A stretch of 64,000 nt of DNA from a virus. The stretch is from positions 1-64,000 of IMG/VR virus record IMGVR_UViG_3300031414_000013; one strand, written 5' to 3'. A program made the position numbers and the translations under genes. Of this stretch, positions 39,993 through 64,000 are shown piece after piece (position 1 is the stretch's first letter; every line of letters begins with the position of its first letter). Below the pieces are notes generated by a model. That model saw only the letters and a program-made list of their open reading frames with translations. It did no database searches and was not told the origin of the DNA.

Positions 39993-40895
39993 TTAGTTTT
40001 CCACCGCAGTTTTGCTCAGGCGAGCTTGCGCATGGTTGTAAGTATCATCGCGACCGAAGTCAATCACGCGGATGCTGGACTGCGCGATTATCGGGTACAT
40101 AGTAATGACGATCGCTATAAAATAGTACCCGGCTTCAGCGTTATGACGCACTTCAACGGTGTGAGTGTAGCCGAAGTTTTCAGCACGCAGTAATCCTGCA
40201 TAGTCGTCTACAAGCTCTTTACTCTCATGACGCAACGCAACAATCACACCGTTCCGATGGTGCTTAACCAAAACCGGCATAACGTCAGATGGCACTGCCC
40301 AAGACTGAGGTGTAAGTTCCCGGTCAAGATTGAATTCGGCCTCATCCTCAATTGGTGCCTCCAGGAAACCCATGAAGTAAAGACGCAGTTTGTTCAGAAT
40401 CTCGTACAGCACGCGAGTCTTCTCTGGAGTCTGCGCTGAGAACGTAACGCTACCGCCAGCAAAACCAACTACGATAGTGGTAGTGGCCGGACGAGGTTCT
40501 TCATCGCCGATGCGAGTCGGTTCTACCAAACTGATGCTGTAGGTGTTGGCCAGATCAAAACCGACTTCAGTAGGTACTGAGATCTGGTAGTGATAATGGT
40601 GCGGTACATTAACCACAGCAAGCACGCGACCAGTTTTAGAAATACGCAGGTTGCAAACTGACTTAAACTGCAAGAACGGGGCAAAGATCAAATCATCGAG
40701 GACGGTCTTAGCTTCAGACTTCTCGTCAATCAATTCTGCCAGTTCGTGCTCGAACACCAGGAACTCGATACCCATGGCATCCTCTACGATAGCAGTGCCC
40801 GGTTCAGTACCAAAACCGAGATAGCGAACAGACTTAGAGCAGATGCCTTCGTCTGGGTCGTTCCATTGATACCAGGTATTCTTCACCAGTTTCAT
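39993..40895 (-). CDS. Multi-domain hypothetical protein
   Basis: 300 aa, ATGA overlap. Confidence 0.75.
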   Translation of the reverse strand: MKLVKNTWYQWNDPDEGICSKSVRYLGFGTEPGTAIVEDAMGIEFLVFEHELAELIDEKSEAKTVLDDLIFAPFLQFKSVCNLRISKTGRVLAVVNVPHHYHYQISVPTEVGFDLANTYSISLVEPTRIGDEEPRPATTTIVVGFAGGSVTFSAQTPEKTRVLYEILNKLRLYFMGFLEAPIEDEAEFNLDRELTPQSWAVPSDVMPVLVKHHRNGVIVALRHESKELVDDYAGLLRAENFGYTHTVEVRHNAEAGYYFIAIVITMYPIIAQSSIRVIDFGRDDTYNHAQARLSKTAVEN

Positions 40896-41392
40896 TTGTT
40901 CTTTCCTTTCATTTTGAAGTTTGAGGCAAGAGCAGCAAGCTCGTCGAATGTACGAATAACAAACTGATGCTCTTTGGCGTCAGTTGCTTTACAGAAAAGC
41001 TTCACTGCGTCTTCCAGCGTATCCGTAAGCTCTAAGGCAGCGCGGGCATGCTCTTCTGCGGTAAGGTACTGAGATCGACAGGTCAACACACCCGGCCCGG
41101 TCATAATACGAACCTCACTGAGAAACGAATTTTCCTTATCGACGAAATAGTCACGCAAAACGCCATGCTCATCGACAACGGCAGTTATCCAGCGACTATC
41201 GTGGTTGATGTTATCGGAAACGCCGTCAGCGCGATAGTCCAGGAAGTTAGCGAACACCGGACTAGTCGGTACCAACACGCCGTACTTAGTAGTCAAAACA
41301 GCCAGCGGAATATGTGTGTACATGCCATTGGGACGAACTTCACCACACACGAAAGCAATTCGGTTGTCTCGAACCATATAAACGTTTGACAT
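40892..41392 (-). CDS. Degenerate proteasome-beta/HslV-like paralog (no N-terminal Thr)
   Basis: N-terminal strand pair and HARAALELTDTLEDAVKLF helix pair match the neighbouring gene. Confidence 0.5.
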   Translation of the reverse strand: MSNVYMVRDNRIAFVCGEVRPNGMYTHIPLAVLTTKYGVLVPTSPVFANFLDYRADGVSDNINHDSRWITAVVDEHGVLRDYFVDKENSFLSEVRIMTGPGVLTCRSQYLTAEEHARAALELTDTLEDAVKLFCKATDAKEHQFVIRTFDELAALASNFKMKGKNK

Positions 41393-41393
41393 C

Positions 41394-41915
41394 TCAACCT
41401 ACCTTAATTGCTTTCAGTTTGTTAGCGTGATACACATCTACACCACGACCAGACAGGGTGTCCATTCGGTTAGCGAATTCAACGGCCTGTTTTGGTGTAC
41501 GACCAGAGAGCATGGCGGAGGATGCGAAGGTAGCACCCGTACCAACTGTGAAGTAGTCGATGTGCTCGTCGGAGATTGAGATCAACCCTTCGATGATACT
41601 GATAAACAGTTTGCGAGTCAGGATCAGGGTGGGTTTACGCACACGTTTACTAACCGCAAGAGCGAGTTCAGTGAATCCGGTGTCAGTCAACTGACCACCT
41701 CCCGCAAAGTGGTGAGCAACCATGCGGAACAGTTTCTCTAACTCGTCAGTGTGGTTCTTACTGAGATCGATGCCAGTAGAACCGTAGACGAATGTACCGC
41801 AGTCAGACATTTTCAGCTTTGGACCATCAGCGAAATGCGTACCACCGTCGTCACCCTTGATTAGCAATTGGCGATCAGCGGCGATACATTTACTATTAAC
41901 AACAATCGTTGTCAT
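41394..41915 (-). CDS. Proteasome-beta/HslV-like Ntn hydrolase
   Basis: MTTIV...IAADRQ...K...TVGTGATFA..AM...AVEFA..D..SG. Confidence 0.8.
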   Translation of the reverse strand: MTTIVVNSKCIAADRQLLIKGDDGGTHFADGPKLKMSDCGTFVYGSTGIDLSKNHTDELEKLFRMVAHHFAGGGQLTDTGFTELALAVSKRVRKPTLILTRKLFISIIEGLISISDEHIDYFTVGTGATFASSAMLSGRTPKQAVEFANRMDTLSGRGVDVYHANKLKAIKVG

Positions 41916-41976
41916 GTTTTGATTCCTTATGGTGCGAAATAGAACGAGAGTGGGTTTTCACCCACTCTCTTATGCC

Positions 41977-42297
41977 TTAGAAGCCGTTAGACTTCATGCT
42001 GCGATCTGGGCTACCACGACCTGTGCGTTCAGGGGTGCGCGCAACAGACTTAACTACATCGCGACCAATCAGCAGACCGGAGTCCAGCTGGAAAGTAATC
42101 GCGTCGCCAACAGACAGAGTTTTCTCACCTTCCAGATAGTCGACCTTAACCGGAACCTGGCAGTGGTCTTCACCAGAGATAAAGATACCTTTCTTGTTGA
42201 TGGCAACAACTTCAGCCTTGACGGTGGTGACGTCACCTGCTTTGCCTTCCTGGACATTCAGCAGTGGTTTGAATTTATCAGCAATGGTCAGTTTCAT
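41977..42297 (-). CDS. Stand-alone S1/OB-fold protein resembling domain 1 of ribosomal protein bS1
   Basis: IADKF..LL..E..GD..V...VVAINK...LSVGDAI...LD...LL..R aligns by eye to bS1 residues 1-90. Confidence 0.65.
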   Translation of the reverse strand: MKLTIADKFKPLLNVQEGKAGDVTTVKAEVVAINKKGIFISGEDHCQVPVKVDYLEGEKTLSVGDAITFQLDSGLLIGRDVVKSVARTPERTGRGSPDRSMKSNGF

Positions 42298-42327
42298 TTC
42301 TTACGTTCCTATTAGTAAAGGGGAGCC

Positions 42328-44698
<2,371 letters not shown>

Positions 44699-44766
44699 TG
44701 TGTTTCCTTATATGGGTTAGTCAGAGAATTTCTCGTGCGTGTAAATTACTACCACATTCGCACTAG

Positions 44767-44784
44767 GATAATGTATACTTGAAA
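44767..44784 (-). promoter_or_regulatory. Early promoter motif
   Basis: TTTCAAGTATACATTATC. Confidence 0.65.
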
Positions 44785-44816
44785 CTTTGTTGAACAAAAA
44801 AAGAAAAGGATAGAAA

Positions 44817-44840
44817 AGAGGAGACCCGAAGGTCTCCTCT
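44817..44840 (-). terminator. Intrinsic terminator
   Basis: AGAGGAGACC-TTCG-GGTCTCCTCT then TTT. Confidence 0.85.
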
Positions 44841-44850
44841 AGTTTGTTAG

Positions 44851-45417
44851 TTATGCCCGAATCTGATGTTCTGCTGCTTTATAAATAGCGTCCATGAATT
44901 CGGTGTTTTCAGATACCGTGGCATTGAAACTCACGGGTCCATTGGACACATCGATTTTAGCTTCAACGTTGATGTCCAGATCAGGATAACCTACCACCAA
45001 CGTAACGGACTGGAGTTTGGTACCGAGATATTCTAAACGCATGCCGCCGGTGATGTTACCCTGAGTTTCAGTTTCGTAACGAGTGGTCGTTACGGACGCA
45101 AAGTCCTCAATCATTACTTCGTTGTCCACCAGCCAGCTAGCGCCTTTACGACCATGTTCGATGAGGTCACGGATCTCAGCGCGCTCAGTATCAGACAACG
45201 CATTGTCTGCATTGTAGGACTGCACGTAAAGCGTACGCTCAAACTCACCGGTTTCAGCATAGCTAGACAACGGACGGGTTTCCCAGATCGGTTGAGTGGA
45301 CATTGTGTCGCCAGTTGCACGATCCTGTACAACGATTTCGCCAACGCACGATTCGTCTGATTCTACGATGATAGCAAAACGGACATTGGTAAGAGCGATA
45401 GAAAGAATAGATTTCAT
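44851..45417 (-). CDS. Early acidic hypothetical protein (monocistronic)
   Basis: Lies between an early promoter motif and a terminator. Confidence 0.75.
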   Translation of the reverse strand: MKSILSIALTNVRFAIIVESDESCVGEIVVQDRATGDTMSTQPIWETRPLSSYAETGEFERTLYVQSYNADNALSDTERAEIRDLIEHGRKGASWLVDNEVMIEDFASVTTTRYETETQGNITGGMRLEYLGTKLQSVTLVVGYPDLDINVEAKIDVSNGPVSFNATVSENTEFMDAIYKAAEHQIRA

Positions 45418-45473
45418 GTTTTGATTCCTTATAGAGATTAAGTTGAGTGAACAGCATTGTTACTGTTCACTCA

Positions 45474-45491
45474 GGTCTTATATATCTGAAA
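45474..45491 (-). promoter_or_regulatory. Early promoter motif (variant)
   Basis: TTTCAGATATATAAGACC. Confidence 0.55.
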
Positions 45492-45507
45492 ATTTATTGA
45501 AACGACA

Positions 45508-45999
45508 CTAGCGGTCACGAACCCGCACCAGTGCATCTCCCAACATATTCAGACCACGCCAACACGTTTGATCCATGTGGTCCGGATGATCAACGTCCAT
45601 CCCAATTCCCCAGAGCGTATCTGTAGGTGAGGCTTCTACCAGCAGTCGCTTACCGGTTGCTTTCAGTTCAGCCATCATCTCTGGGTTCTGTTCAAACTTG
45701 GCAGACAGTACGTCACACATCGTAGCAAATCGCTCGCCAGCCCATACCTGATCGTTGTAAGGAGATACTTCACGACCCAGCATTTTACAGATGAACGGGG
45801 CATTACGTTTGCCTGGATCTACGGCAGCGATTTTAGCAGCCACCCGGTAGTCCTTAAAGTGCATTGCCTTCAACCACATGAATGCCTGTTCTGAGCAGAA
45901 GAAATTCACGCCCGCCAAGTTAAACTCGCAACGATAGAAGTTGCTGTAGATGTCGTCCCCATAATAGAAGAAGACAAACTCATCAGTTGTCTTTACCAT
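45508..45999 (-). CDS. NADAR (YbiA/DUF1768) family protein
   Basis: YSNFY...SEQAFM..KA..F, K.LGR.V, KFEQN, LVEASPTD.LWGIG, G.N.LG; start at 45999. Confidence 0.92.
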   Translation of the reverse strand: MVKTTDEFVFFYYGDDIYSNFYRCEFNLAGVNFFCSEQAFMWLKAMHFKDYRVAAKIAAVDPGKRNAPFICKMLGREVSPYNDQVWAGERFATMCDVLSAKFEQNPEMMAELKATGKRLLVEASPTDTLWGIGMDVDHPDHMDQTCWRGLNMLGDALVRVRDR

Positions 46000-46243
46000 G
46001 TGTCTCCACCGTACATTCGAGGACAATAGCAGGAGGGAAGAAGTCAGGCTTGTTGGTAATGCTATCCCACTGCACCTGAATCTGCTCACGTAGTTGCTGT
46101 TGTAATATCAGCTTGAGCTTAAACACTGGACACTGATACTTACGGCGACCTTTAGGAATGACCTGGTACGGGTTCTTACGATGCAGGTTTTTCTTTTCCT
46201 GTCGAGTCAGAACAGCCGTTGGGTCTATGTACGACTTTGGCAT
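45983..46243 (-). CDS. Small basic hypothetical protein
   Basis: 86 aa, GAGGA RBS. Confidence 0.6.
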   Translation of the reverse strand: MPKSYIDPTAVLTRQEKKNLHRKNPYQVIPKGRRKYQCPVFKLKLILQQQLREQIQVQWDSITNKPDFFPPAIVLECTVETHGKDN

Positions 46244-46737
46244 TTTAACATCCTCTTCATTTTCTCAGAGAAAGAAACCTTCTCTTTGATGACTGGTTCG
46301 AAATAGCTAAAGAAGGCGGCTACCGAATGACATGCGTTCGCTGCCAGGATACAATTCAACAGCACCGCATGCTCTTCGCTTTTCAGTGGGTTCAGTCCAG
46401 GCATATTGAACGGATGTCGTCTACCCGCATCGATGTTCTCCTGTGTCCACAGTGGAGCCACAGCCAACCCTGGATGTTTGTACCCAATAACATCATTCAC
46501 AAGCCACGTACCGTCGCATGTGACGATCAAGGCTTTATGCGTGAGGTTGCCGTAGAAGCTATCGCCCTTCTCAAGATAGCCTTCCAGTAGGAAGTCAAGG
46601 TGCTCACGGAATGCGAATACACCAACCATGATAATCTGACTACCTGCCCATTTAGCATCTGGACCATTTTTACTGTAGGCGAAACAGAGCTGCGCTGCGC
46701 TGTCCTCCACACCGTTAGATGAAAGCATGACTCTCAT
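46225..46737 (-). CDS. Hypothetical protein, possible degenerate Ntn-fold paralog
   Basis: ALIVTCDGTWLV and EEHA patterns shared with the Ntn paralogs. Confidence 0.55.
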   Translation of the reverse strand: MRVMLSSNGVEDSAAQLCFAYSKNGPDAKWAGSQIIMVGVFAFREHLDFLLEGYLEKGDSFYGNLTHKALIVTCDGTWLVNDVIGYKHPGLAVAPLWTQENIDAGRRHPFNMPGLNPLKSEEHAVLLNCILAANACHSVAAFFSYFEPVIKEKVSFSEKMKRMLKCQSRT

Positions 46738-47183
46738 TGGAGACTCCCGTTAAATACGTACTCGAGTTTACCACGACGATACGCACCTTTAACAACTTCA
46801 TCTAGTGAGTAGCCATAGCGATTAACAAAGATCCTACTGTACTGACCTAGTAGCTCCTCAGACACGGTCACGAGCGGTGCGCTGGTCTCCAGAAGCTCCA
46901 TGCCTCGCTCTAGGAGTCGTAACCCTAAGCCAGTGTTCTGATGACTTGGGGAGACCCTTACACAACGTAGTTTCTTTTCGTCCCCATTTTTAGCCAAAAC
47001 AAAACCGGCCAGCGTCCCGCCAACAAAAGCTCCTATTGCTAGGTTGCTTTCATTGGCGGGGTCAGATAGGACTTTGTTACGATACCAGTTGTCAATGTTC
47101 GGGTAGTACTGATCTAATGTCAGCAGGGATGGAGTGAGGAGCCGAAGCTCCTCCAACGTGTTAAGTTTTCTTATTTCTAACAT
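46734..47183 (-). CDS. GNAT-family acetyltransferase
   Basis: VRVSPSHQNTGLGLRLL acetyl-CoA motif A. Confidence 0.85.
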   Translation of the reverse strand: MLEIRKLNTLEELRLLTPSLLTLDQYYPNIDNWYRNKVLSDPANESNLAIGAFVGGTLAGFVLAKNGDEKKLRCVRVSPSHQNTGLGLRLLERGMELLETSAPLVTVSEELLGQYSRIFVNRYGYSLDEVVKGAYRRGKLEYVFNGSLQ

Positions 47184-47544
47184 TGTTCAACCAGAAGACA
47201 AACCGTAACCAAAGTCGGCCCCACCAATGCTTGTTCAATTTAGTGAACATCTGAACCGACTCACCCATTTCTTTAAAGACTTCGGAGTTGGAGAAAACAC
47301 CAACCTGACCGTATGGCGTATGCAATGCCGCATACCAACCGTAGGCGTCGTCTGGTTTATCCTTGATCTCCTTAAGCTCCCAGCCAGGATAGCTCTCCGC
47401 AATAACATCACGCATTGCACCTGGGTCGTACAGATAGTCAGTGCGAAGACTATCTTTGATATGTTCGGGCGCGTTGTCGTGCCACCAGTCACGAGCCGCT
47501 GGATTTTCATCAAGCCACTCTTTTGCTATTTTCAAACTATCCAT
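47161..47544 (-). CDS. Hypothetical protein
   Basis: 127 aa, AAGGA RBS. Confidence 0.7.
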   Translation of the reverse strand: MDSLKIAKEWLDENPAARDWWHDNAPEHIKDSLRTDYLYDPGAMRDVIAESYPGWELKEIKDKPDDAYGWYAALHTPYGQVGVFSNSEVFKEMGESVQMFTKLNKHWWGRLWLRFVFWLNNVRNKKT

Positions 47545-47553
47545 TGTGATTCC

Positions 47554-48198
47554 TTAATATTTAAATGTGTTGTTGTACCAAGTGCCGAATCTTACCGCAT
47601 AGCTAAGCAAGCAACCGTAGTACACGCGAAGCATTGGATAACGATAGTGCTTAGTGACCATCTTAGGTTCACGCGCATTTGTATCGTACATACGCAGGTA
47701 TCCACCGCAGCCAGCCGATAAGGCTATCGCTGCACAGACAGTACCAATTTCATCTGTCTTGAAAAACCGTGTGATGACTTCCACCGGAGCACGCCCAGAT
47801 CCAATGCATACGAATTCATCACGCTTGTGATTTTTAACCACAAATGCTGAACCTTCACTTGACCGACGGAAGTTGACTTCGTAGCAATGGTTAGCTGTCA
47901 AGACTAACATAGTGCAATCCAACCCAACTGCCGCTTTTATAGCACGCAACACTTTATACGAGTCGAGTGCTTCCTTGCCGCCCTTTAGTAGCATTTCCGT
48001 TGCGATAGTGATTGCATCAGACGCACCTGCACCAGCAACAGCCAGGATAACCTCTTTACCCCAAACCGCAAGTTTCTCCTCTTGCCTATATGCCGGGTAA
48101 GGTGTGATCTTTACAATGTTATCGTGTTGAGACACACCGCGTGCTACCGTTCTTGAGTCCGCATAAAAGACACCATCGCGCTGAACAATGACCGTCAT
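47554..48198 (-). CDS. Proteasome-beta/HslV-like Ntn hydrolase
   Basis: (M)TVIV...YADSR...KI...AGAG...IGSG...GCGG; RBS spacing favours the second ATG, exposing Thr1. Confidence 0.75.
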   Translation of the reverse strand: MTVIVQRDGVFYADSRTVARGVSQHDNIVKITPYPAYRQEEKLAVWGKEVILAVAGAGASDAITIATEMLLKGGKEALDSYKVLRAIKAAVGLDCTMLVLTANHCYEVNFRRSSEGSAFVVKNHKRDEFVCIGSGRAPVEVITRFFKTDEIGTVCAAIALSAGCGGYLRMYDTNAREPKMVTKHYRYPMLRVYYGCLLSYAVRFGTWYNNTFKY

Positions 48199-48200
48199 CA

Positions 48201-48533
48201 TTACTCCTTAATTAACACCAGAACTTCACCGTCCATATCCGCTACACCAGCAGCATAGACCAACGCATCCTCGACACCCAGGCCGTTAGAGTCGCCTTCC
48301 AGTAGCAATTCAATTATGCGACTGGCTAGCCAGGTCGGCAACGTATGCGTAGTGTTGCCTTTGACTAAAGCAACCGTGTTTACTTTGTCATACGGACCTT
48401 CAAAATAAATCATGAAGGAATGTGACGGCGTGATGCACTTCCGGTCAACAACACGATTGACTTTATAAAGAAGTACGGTGTCCCAAACTGTAAACTGACG
48501 CTTGGTCACTTGGATTGGGTTTTTGTTGATCAT
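48201..48533 (-). CDS. Hypothetical protein
   Basis: 110 aa, GGAGG RBS. Confidence 0.7.
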   Translation of the reverse strand: MINKNPIQVTKRQFTVWDTVLLYKVNRVVDRKCITPSHSFMIYFEGPYDKVNTVALVKGNTTHTLPTWLASRIIELLLEGDSNGLGVEDALVYAAGVADMDGEVLVLIKE

Positions 48534-48811
48534 ACGACCTCCGGGTGCGTGTTATAGATGACCCATTGTTTACAGCGTTCCATGATTTCCTCTACGGCAT
48601 CGCGCTCCACACCTGCGTCCAACAAACCAGTCTCGATGTCCGGTAAGGTTTGGAAGTCCCAACGGCCGTCGGCTCGCGCTGCCGTAATAAAAGCTATCCA
48701 GTCTACCCGCATTTTTCTTTTTACGATGATCTCATTTAAAGAAACGTCGAGTGGTAATCCGTGGGTTGCTTTGAGTTGAAACAGTTTGTCGCCTGGAAAT
48801 AAAATAGACAC
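48530..48811 (-). CDS. Stand-alone alanyl-tRNA synthetase helical-subdomain-like protein
   Basis: GDKLFQLKATHGLPLD...VDWIAF matches the AlaRS G..AF.LYDTYGFP.D...VD..GF motif. Confidence 0.7.
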   Translation of the reverse strand: MSILFPGDKLFQLKATHGLPLDVSLNEIIVKRKMRVDWIAFITAARADGRWDFQTLPDIETGLLDAGVERDAVEEIMERCKQWVIYNTHPEVV

Positions 48812-63967: not shown

Positions 63968-64000
63968 TTACTTTCCTTAGGCTGCTATTTGAAGGCGACG

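Follow-up and report, generated by a model that had tools for sequence, protein, structure and literature searches.

The question raised by this locus is whether two proteasome-like genes of a jumbo phage, lying end to end, encode an active subunit and an inactive partner of one peptidase. The DNA analyzed is a window of 64,000 nucleotides from IMG/VR virus record IMGVR_UViG_3300031414_000013. It is a portion of a 97-kb fragment whose parent is a jumbo phage of ~270 kb, the contig making up ~36% of the genome by completeness estimate. Distant kin of the source phage are jumbo phages of Erwinia, Serratia, and Pectobacterium, the majority of them nucleus forming, and the hosts of these related phages make Enterobacterales the likely hosts here. 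A preliminary description of the sequence had proposed a single family of four proteasome-beta/HslV-like genes, two with an N-terminal threonine and two degenerate. All four open reading frames (40892-41392, 41394-41915, 46225-46737, and 47554-48198) were found on the minus strand at exactly these coordinates.

The gene at 41394-41915 (minus strand, 173 aa, Met-Thr start) encodes an HslV/proteasome-beta-like protein, a putative catalytic subunit. In a profile search, residues 1 to 170 matched PHROG 1040, "peptidase HslV family," with an E value of 1.2e-13; in a six-frame search of control genomes, the same profile also picked up E. coli HslV and archaeal proteasomes. The N terminus reads MTT, with Thr immediately after Met, and throughout the family the residue after Met is Thr or Ser. 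An alignment of 15 family sequences showed D14, K33, G48, G125, and G127 to be invariant, the last two enclosing the turn G125-T-G127 in the window's protein. When the family was compared with E. coli HslV by hhalign (E = 1.1e-4), the alignment began at Thr1 and placed the invariant columns on the HslV positions for Asp17, Lys33, Gly47, and the G-S/T-G turn. The natural PDB sequences matching the family best were HslV and BPH, led by HslV 4hnz (E = 0.027), and the annotation of the orthologue in Serratia phage Moabite rests on an HHpred match to HslV 1M4Y. Pfam PF00227 gave no score at E<0.1 for the products of 41394-41915 or 47554-48198, and the NCBIfam HslV models gave none for phage HslV-like protein. 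Judged by its residues, the product of 41394-41915 is a catalytically competent N-terminal-threonine peptidase subunit of the HslV type. Catalytic genes of the PhiEaH1 and RAY clades carry Ser in place of Thr and GNG in place of GTG, and their activity may differ as a result. Just upstream of the catalytic gene, a terminator-like hairpin (41946-41969, minus strand) with a 10-bp stem, a GAAA loop, and a T-rich tail probably marks where a separate expression unit starts; a terminator is annotated at the equivalent relative position in Moabite.

The neighboring gene at 40892-41392 (minus strand, 166 aa) begins 1 nt after the catalytic gene, as originally described, with the junction reading TGA-g-ATG. 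Its product is a predicted non-catalytic partner of HslV fold and belongs to PHROG 8172, a family of unknown function (E = 5.6e-15, profile search). An Ntn fold had been expected for it, and structure prediction bore this out, since the top matches were all proteasome or HslV. The AF2 model (pLDDT 87.9, pTM 0.84) was compared with the PDB by Foldseek, and among the matches listed all were 20S proteasome subunits, with probabilities up to 0.97. In a wide structure search with VIA, the best 44 matches were all Ntn hydrolases; in a second VIA comparison, HslV from six species aligned over ~130 residues with Z scores of 7.2 to 8.0. The best match, an HslV, reached Z = 8.0 with an rmsd of 3.6 over 132 residues; by the tool's calibration, a Z of ~8 is middling. 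A search of BFVD returned partner orthologues first (TM 0.8 to 0.86). Viral proteins with a proteasome beta or HslV annotation came next, among them the catalytic neighbors in phages Special G and Moabite. The predicted structure is thus an Ntn alpha-beta-beta-alpha fold of the HslV-like kind, with a shortened H1/H2 helix region in the model, and PHROG 8172 would thereby gain a fold assignment.

The absence of Thr1 from this protein was also confirmed. In the VIA alignment, Asn3 falls on residue 1 of HslV, the nucleophile position, and the corresponding residue is Gly in the RAY clade; N termini across the partner family read MSN, MRN, MSG, or MS-. The equivalent of Asp17 is gone, there being no Asp following the IAF strand. 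The equivalent of Lys33 is absent in most members of the family, and Lys36 is replaced by Pro in distant ones. Lacking the Thr/Ser1, Asp17, and Lys33 set, the product of 40892-41392 is a pseudo-enzyme of the HslV/proteasome-beta fold. The G-x-G turn is still present in it, as is the general topology of HslV, and its family has invariant residues, G38, P42, R106, E113, and E114, that are non-catalytic in HslV. The preliminary description had likened the two genes to proteasome beta and alpha subunits. An active/inactive pair is indeed what is found, but the alpha analogy, taken literally, is not supported: the model opens with strand S1 (E4-8), its residue 3 falls where HslV and beta subunits have residue 1, and the helix H0 that precedes S1 in alpha-type subunits is absent from it. 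The partner as modeled is therefore a dead HslV/beta-type subunit and not an alpha-type one. No significant sequence similarity was detected by pairwise BLAST or hhalign between the partner and the two Thr1 proteins, so that the common descent of the catalytic and partner families is argued from fold alone. The helix pair once thought to be shared by 40892-41392 and 41394-41915 was picked up by hhalign without reaching significance (E = 0.085, probability 0.7%).

The pairing itself is conserved. The catalytic and partner genes are adjacent and in constant order in 7/7 genomes (HMM searches in 6/6 records, plus Moabite), and in 30/30 tblastn records the match to the partner begins before the upstream gene has ended. 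At the junction, RAY, Moabite, and PhiEaH1 have overlaps of 4 or 8 nt, and pEa_SNUABM_54 has a 12-nt gap. The active/inactive pair is kept in jumbo phages of Erwinia, Serratia, and Pectobacterium, spanning at least four phage genera. Conservation does not extend to the gene that follows. In the window this is 39993-40895 (minus strand), which has no Pfam or PHROG match and no similarity to the genes after the pair in pEa_SNUABM_54, PhiEaH1, or RAY; these third genes belong to different families in the relatives. Phage proteasome homologues have already been catalogued, and the conserved active/inactive pair appears to be undescribed.

The other two members of the proposed family fared differently. 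Pairwise BLAST found no similarity among the four genes, which do not form one sequence family; the two Thr1 genes were upheld, with 47554-48198 (minus strand, 214 aa) as a putative second, solitary HslV-like catalytic subunit. It matches PHROG 1040 (E = 4.2e-9 in the profile search and 3.6e-11 in a six-frame search), has a Met-Thr start, and contains ADSR, AGAGASDA, and GSG. hhalign aligned it with the 41394-41915 family co-linearly over 158 columns (E = 0.002), Asp on Asp and Lys on Lys. Its neighbors in ESM feature space are viral clusters, in one of which 13% of the members carry PF00227. An AAGGAG Shine-Dalgarno sequence lies 5 nt ahead of the second ATG, and a homologue of 85% identity starts with MT; the Shine-Dalgarno spacing and the start of that homologue favor initiation at 48198 over 48201. 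This protein, which has an aromatic-rich C-terminal extension of ~40 residues, would be a second HslV-like peptidase acting independently. Genes for a NADAR domain, a GNAT protein, and a sub-threshold match to the Tad1 family lie nearby.

Of the two genes called degenerate, 40892-41392 thus held up and 46225-46737 (minus strand, 170 aa) did not. The latter, which is translationally coupled to an upstream GNAT gene, matched no Pfam, PHROG, or NCBIfam profile, and a search of 1.8 billion representatives yielded 3 relatives of full length. Its AF2 model was poor (pLDDT 61.6). The Ntn fold anticipated for it did not emerge: in VIA the best matches of this low-confidence model were PH-like and PP2C-like folds at Z = 4.8, with proteasome alpha at 3.2 to 3.4, and hhalign against both Ntn families gave E values of 0.02 to 0.04 with probabilities of at most 2%. 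With few relatives and fold matches at noise level, a fourth Ntn member is unsupported, and we list this frame as one of unassigned fold.

The window holds no partner AAA ATPase, as had been noted; a BCS1-like AAA gene starts in its final 24 bases, 22 kb from the pair. RAY encodes an HslU-like protein (gp116). The 97-kb contig, its two close relatives, and the complete pEa_SNUABM_54 and PhiEaH1 genomes yielded neither a homologue of gp116 nor an AAA_2 domain, and no HslU- or Clp-type ATPase was found in the contig or the complete genomes; the contig being ~36% of the genome, an ATPase gene may lie elsewhere in the phage. The mark of an HslVU system, a cognate HslU gene (AAA_2/HCLR clade) alongside the peptidase, was not found here. 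The term "ATP-independent" protease is plausible, though host HslU may serve the phage peptidase. Fuchs, Alva, and Lupas (2021, PMC8665760) likewise saw no AAA+ partner co-occurring with phage proteasome homologues.

The explanation of the locus that we favor, with moderate confidence, is that the HslV-type active/dead pair constitutes a co-assembling two-subunit phage peptidase. Translational coupling would yield the two proteins in roughly equal amounts, and these would co-assemble into a hetero-oligomeric, self-compartmentalizing peptidase in which the dead subunit shapes assembly, gating, or substrate access, comparable to ClpR with ClpP or to the inactive beta subunits of the eukaryotic 20S proteasome. 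The particle would work without a phage HslU-type unfoldase; because none would be phage encoded, peptides or unstructured proteins might be degraded unaided, or a host ATPase might be borrowed. Its likely role would be to help the jumbo phage take over the host or counter its defences during infection. A broader proposition is that a minimal "viral proteasome" of two HslV-type subunits, one active and one dead, arose independently in jumbo phages, mostly nucleus-forming ones, where it would break down particular host or defence proteins during infection with no ATPase of its own; this is put forward tentatively and is open to doubt.

Alternatively, the HslV-like subunits of the phage, alone or together with the dead partner, might dock on host HslU, giving a chimeric ATP-dependent protease or titrating HslU, with host proteolysis redirected or blocked. 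Enterobacterales, the likely hosts, possess HslU, and E. coli hslVU was found in a control genome; among solved structures HslV comes nearest in fold, no phage ATPase was found to accompany the pair consistently, and a dead subunit would fit a decoy or poison role. However, the position of Lys28 in E. coli HslV, presumably the residue binding the HslU C-terminal carboxylate, is Phe in the phage protein (by hhalign, in an alignment that is unreliable at 19% identity), and the H1/H2 face, turned toward HslU in HslV, is much reduced in the partner model. We regard docking as unlikely, though far from negligible.

The shortening of H1/H2 in the model would suit a partner that is no ring subunit, being instead a dedicated inhibitor, an assembly chaperone, or a substrate adaptor of the neighboring peptidase, or else an unrelated binder reusing the Ntn scaffold. 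The partner's own set of invariant residues, non-catalytic in HslV, and its lack of sequence similarity to the catalytic subunit point the same way. We give this only a small chance, given that the strict adjacency and the overlapping start and stop codons seen in at least four phage genera suggest that the two proteins are produced stoichiometrically, as is more typical of subunits that assemble together, and that the G-x-G turn and HslV topology are kept. It is highly improbable that the Thr1 proteins are specialized Ntn enzymes, whether deconjugases acting on ubiquitin-like or CBASS-type conjugates, connectase-like ligases, or amidases. The ligase connectase, of the proteasome-like superfamily, does occur among the fold matches of the partner model (Z = 5.7 to 7.2), and 47554-48198 lies close to the NADAR, GNAT, and sub-threshold Tad1 genes. 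Against this, no connectase- or deconjugase-specific feature was found, HslV and BPH come closest in both sequence and fold, and no ubiquitin-like, E1/E2, or JAB genes were seen adjoining 41394-41915 or 47554-48198. Nothing was found to support the earlier suggestion of a deconjugase directed against protein-conjugation defences.

Among known systems, mixed ClpP/ClpR rings of cyanobacteria and plastids are self-compartmentalizing proteases combining active subunits with dead paralogues. The phage pair may offer a functional analogy to this combination; however, ClpP is a serine protease of unrelated fold, and ClpPR acts together with Clp ATPases. Bacterial HslV (ClpQ), the peptidase of HslVU, resembles the phage catalytic family in its length of ~175 aa, in having Met followed by Thr1 with no propeptide, and in the motif order Asp17, Lys33, Gly45-48, G-S/T-G. 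It differs in that identity is ~19%, the phage protein is not recognized by the PF00227 or NCBIfam HslV models, hslU is neither adjacent to nor conserved with the phage gene, and the phage subunit has a dead paralogue as its partner where bacterial HslV has none. The 20S proteasome resembles the phage locus in that homologous subunits of Ntn fold, catalytic and non-catalytic, are encoded together, whereas the phage partner lacks the alpha-type H0, and the phage pair is known here from genes and one predicted monomer. The inactive beta subunits of eukaryotes resemble the partner more than alpha subunits do.

Compact proteasome-like proteins of tailed phages, PPH, AAH, CPH, and RPC, have been described with a Thr1/Ser1-Asp-Lys triad and no known function (PMC8665760). 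PPH and RPC lack helix H2, recalling the partner's shortened H1/H2, and RPC has a C-terminal extension, as does 47554-48198. In that structural analysis all homologues appear to share the catalytic triad, and the partner does not. The discussion there reports no informative gene contexts, and in the part of that paper covered here, no mention of a dead partner or a conserved active/inactive pair was found. Salmonella jumbo phage pSal-SNUABM-04 likewise has two HslV-like genes in its genome and no HslU, at the level of annotation (PMC7823757), but neither a dead partner nor pairing was described.

The conserved, coupled active/inactive pair provides a concrete, testable architecture for phage proteasome-like proteins, which had been catalogued without function or partners. 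The pair would add a second, independent example of a self-compartmentalizing Ntn protease that has recruited a dead paralogue, and a two-subunit "viral proteasome," if true, would parallel the origin of the heteromeric proteasome. The pair occurs in the culturable phages Erwinia RAY, Serratia Moabite, and Erwinia PhiEaH1, in which its assembly, its substrates, and a possible role in takeover or counter-defence are open to study.

Four genes in the window had been proposed to form a family of proteasome-beta- or HslV-like genes. Three of them have been borne out: two are Thr1 HslV-like genes (PHROG 1040), and one encodes a dead Ntn fold according to AlphaFold2 (AF2). Membership of the gene at 46225 to 46737 is not supported. 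The four are not a sequence family, since pairwise BLAST among the four proteins finds nothing. What did hold up clearly is the proposed pairing of an active with an inactive gene, and it is conserved among related phages.

The window makes up the first 64 kb of an IMG/VR contig of 97,080 bp, estimated to be 36% complete, which gives a phage genome of ~270 kb. When the region was compared by megablast with 50,697 phage records, there was no match, so near-identical DNA is absent from that set. Distant relatives of the proteins of interest, at 23 to 35% identity, occur among jumbo phages of Erwinia (pEa_SNUABM_54, the RAY/Ea35-70 group, and PhiEaH1) and also of Serratia and Pectobacterium. Copies that are 81 to 86% identical were found on two metagenomic contigs, G001 and G002. 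Chimallin, the nuclear-shell protein of RAY, has a homologue in G001, G002, and pEa_SNUABM_54, which places the lineage among the jumbo phages that form a nucleus (bioRxiv 10.1101/2023.02.24.529968). Every gene between 38 and 51 kb is on the minus strand.

Judged from their sequences, two proteins are of the HslV type with an intact triad. The first (41394 to 41915, minus strand; 173 amino acids, MTT start) and the second (47554 to 48198, minus strand; 214 amino acids, MT start) matched PHROG 1040, "peptidase HslV family," over almost their full lengths with E values of 1.2e-13 and 4.2e-9, respectively, and in a six-frame search with E values of 1.4e-15 and 3.6e-11. In control genomes, this profile picks up E. 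coli HslV and archaeal proteasomes. Both proteins are divergent, as they are out of reach of the Pfam and NCBIfam models. In an alignment of 15 members of the first family, D14, K33, G48, G125, and G127 are invariant, and the methionine is followed by Thr in the phage's own clade but by Ser in those of PhiEaH1 and RAY. The 15-member family aligned with E. coli HslV from Thr1 onward (hhalign, E 1.1e-4). An hmmsearch of the PDB with the 15-sequence profile gave HslV (E 0.027) and BPH as the best natural matches, with spurious designed-repeat matches ranking higher, and a 5-sequence profile found nothing relevant there. The annotation of the orthologue in phage Moabite rests on an HHpred match to T. 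maritima HslV.

The second protein is co-linear with the first family over 158 columns (hhalign, E 0.002), Asp falling on Asp and Lys on Lys, and it contains AGAGASDA and GSG motifs and an insertion that separates the Asp from the Lys. Its start at 48198 is backed by Shine-Dalgarno spacing and by a homologue. Its hhalign comparison with E. coli HslV was not significant, and tblastn against the phage records gave no match. The C-terminal ~40 residues (47554 to 47680) make up an aromatic and hydrophobic extension past the HslV core, with 85% conservation in close relatives, and recall the C-terminal extension of the RPC type in PMC8665760. Extra HslV-like paralogues were seen elsewhere in related genomes (G002:C1:32206-32685 and NC_023610.1:134225-134755), and PhiEaH1 has a second HslV-like copy. 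The third copy in G002 is more canonical, with a PHROG 1040 E value of 4e-32, much better than that of either copy in the window. Multiple HslV-like paralogues per genome seem to be common in this phage group, and the missing part of the present phage may carry a G002-type gene too.

The neighbor of the first catalytic gene (40892 to 41392, minus strand) encodes a protein of 166 amino acids that falls in PHROG 8172, "unknown function." Its sequence could not be linked significantly to the catalytic family, either by pairwise BLAST or by hhalign with the partner-family alignment (E 0.085). Nor did hhalign give a significant match when two distant members of the partner family were compared singly, leaving no sequence bridge, and the partner family did not align significantly with E. 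coli HslV. Structure prediction, as the preliminary description had expected, gave an Ntn fold. The AF2 model, built from an 11-sequence alignment, is confident (pLDDT 87.9, pTM 0.84), and the Foldseek matches listed from the PDB were 20S proteasome subunits throughout (E ~3e-3, probability up to 0.97). In VIA, a fold search of 48,161 chains that is independent of Foldseek, the best 44 rows were all Ntn hydrolases, led by proteasome beta, HslV, Anbu, BPH, and connectase and continuing with penicillin acylases and enzymes of that kind. A second-look alignment ranked HslV from six species first, at a Z score of 7.2 to 8.0, where ~8 is middling on the tool's own calibration, with an rmsd of ~3.6 Å over ~130 of ~173 residues. 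The fold call carries weight because the matches agree, span residues 1 to 150, and repeatedly start by pairing model residue 3 with chain residue 1. Among the viral predicted structures of BFVD, the model's own orthologues came first, including those of Ralstonia phages RSF1 and RP12 (TM 0.7 to 0.86), followed by viral proteins that carry a proteasome beta or HslV annotation.

The absence of Thr1 from this protein was confirmed, the nucleophile position being occupied by Asn3, or by Gly in the RAY clade. The partner family has no Asp after the IAF strand, and Lys36 is replaced by Pro in distant members. It keeps the G-x-G turn (G99 and G101 invariant) and has invariant residues of its own, R106, E113, and E114. 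In the model, the H1/H2 helix pair is shrunk to a single short helix. The earlier comparison of the inactive gene with proteasome alpha subunits does not fit the model, which begins at S1, and the protein is for this reason predicted to be a dead subunit of the HslV/beta type, not of the alpha type. In P0014, the partner homologue from Erwinia phage AH06, the N terminus reads MS-IVAI and YAD stands at the place of the active family's AAD; both may be remnants of Ser1 and Asp17 inherited from an ancestor that was active. P0014, a distant member of the partner family, gave no significant hhalign link to the active family.

In HMM searches, one PHROG 8172 gene lies directly 3' of a PHROG 1040 gene in 6 of 6 records, and Moabite has the same arrangement. 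In 30 of 30 tblastn records, the upstream gene's end and the partner match overlap. One HslV-type protein is strictly linked to a dead paralogue with the same predicted fold. The catalytic stop codon and the partner ATG are one base apart in the present phage, as first described, with a purine-rich stretch, AAGGTAGG, just upstream of the stop. The two genes overlap by 4 nt in RAY and Moabite and by 8 nt in PhiEaH1, and are separated by a 12-nt gap in pEa_SNUABM_54. A terminator-like hairpin lies 5' of the catalytic gene, in the position where a terminator is annotated in Moabite. A conserved third gene 3' of the pair was considered and rejected, the following gene differing among the relatives compared. 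A 106-amino-acid ORF (41977 to 42297, minus strand) with only a weak S1_2 match (E 0.039) sits between the pair and the NAD-dependent DNA ligase; it is conserved only with pEa_SNUABM_54, whose same-position gene is 40% identical (E 5e-18), and PhiEaH1 and RAY have similar-sized genes there without detectable relation.

The fourth candidate (46225 to 46737, minus strand) is not supported as an Ntn member. It has no family match in Pfam, PHROG, or NCBIfam, and only three full-length relatives emerged when 1.8 billion representatives were searched exhaustively, one a 99%-identical copy and the others the proteins P0016 and P0017. A conserved N-terminal Thr, Ser, or Cys is absent across the candidate, P0016, and P0017, and hhalign against both Ntn families gave E values of 0.02 to 0.04 at a probability of at most 2%. 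The models are poor (AF2 pLDDT 61.6; ESM Atlas pLDDT 0.35, with neighbors at noise level), and the fold search with the poor model peaked on PH-like and PP2C folds (Z score 4.8), proteasome alpha subunits reaching only 3.2 to 3.4. The start of the gene overlaps by 4 nt the stop of a GNAT acetyltransferase gene (46734 to 47183, minus strand; PF00583 E 5e-6, PHROG 13728 E 5e-39), whose own start overlaps a preceding 127-amino-acid ORF. A NADAR-domain protein (45508 to 46089, minus strand; PF08719 E 3e-37, PHROG 1017) is also encoded in the accessory region that follows the second HslV-like gene. A 115-amino-acid ORF (44351 to 44698, minus strand), preceded by a strong 10-bp hairpin at 44817 to 44840, had a sub-threshold match (E 3e-4; 21.7 bits, below the cut-off of 27) to Phage_gp49_66, the family containing Tad1. 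A 93-amino-acid ORF (48530 to 48811, minus strand) had a weak sub-threshold match over residues 5 to 47 to tRNA-synt_2c, the alanyl-tRNA synthetase family (E 4.5e-4).

The statement that the window holds no partner AAA ATPase needs refinement: HslU or AAA_2 was not found, and the window does include the last 24 bases (63977 to 64000) of a BCS1-like classical AAA gene. That gene (contig 63977 to 65326, minus strand; L016:1306-2655 in the flanking stretch) encodes 449 amino acids with a hydrophobic N-terminal segment (PF00004 E 2.7e-18, BCS1_N E 2.5e-8, PHROG 7485), and its product is the only classical AAA protein found near the HslV-like genes. It is conserved in G001, G002, and pEa_SNUABM_54 but is not an obligate companion of the pair, because PhiEaH1 has the pair without it. 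Its C terminus (...LQIAA) has no HbYX docking motif. RAY gp116 is annotated as HslU-like and is reported to be nuclear (bioRxiv 10.1101/2023.02.24.529968). A gp116 homologue is absent from the 97-kb contig, G001, G002, and the complete genomes of pEa_SNUABM_54 and PhiEaH1, and no AAA_2 domain was found in the same set. Across these genomes, with the present contig ~36% complete, no conserved phage HslU accompanies the HslV-type proteins.

Phage proteasome homologues are already known. The phage-borne types PPH, AAH, and CPH were catalogued by Fuchs, Alva, and Lupas (2021; PMC8665760), who describe a Thr1/Ser1-Asp17-Lys33 triad common to all proteasome-like homologues and who found neither informative gene contexts nor a co-occurring AAA+ partner. 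Salmonella jumbo phage pSal-SNUABM-04 is reported to have two HslV genes and no HslU (PMC7823757). Full-text literature searches found no description of the dead partner or of an active/inactive pair, and no support was found for the deconjugase role suggested previously. The active/inactive pair is real and conserved. The two proteins would be made in equal amounts and may co-assemble into a heteromeric peptidase, which would act without ATP or via a host ATPase, and which may serve in takeover or counter-defence.
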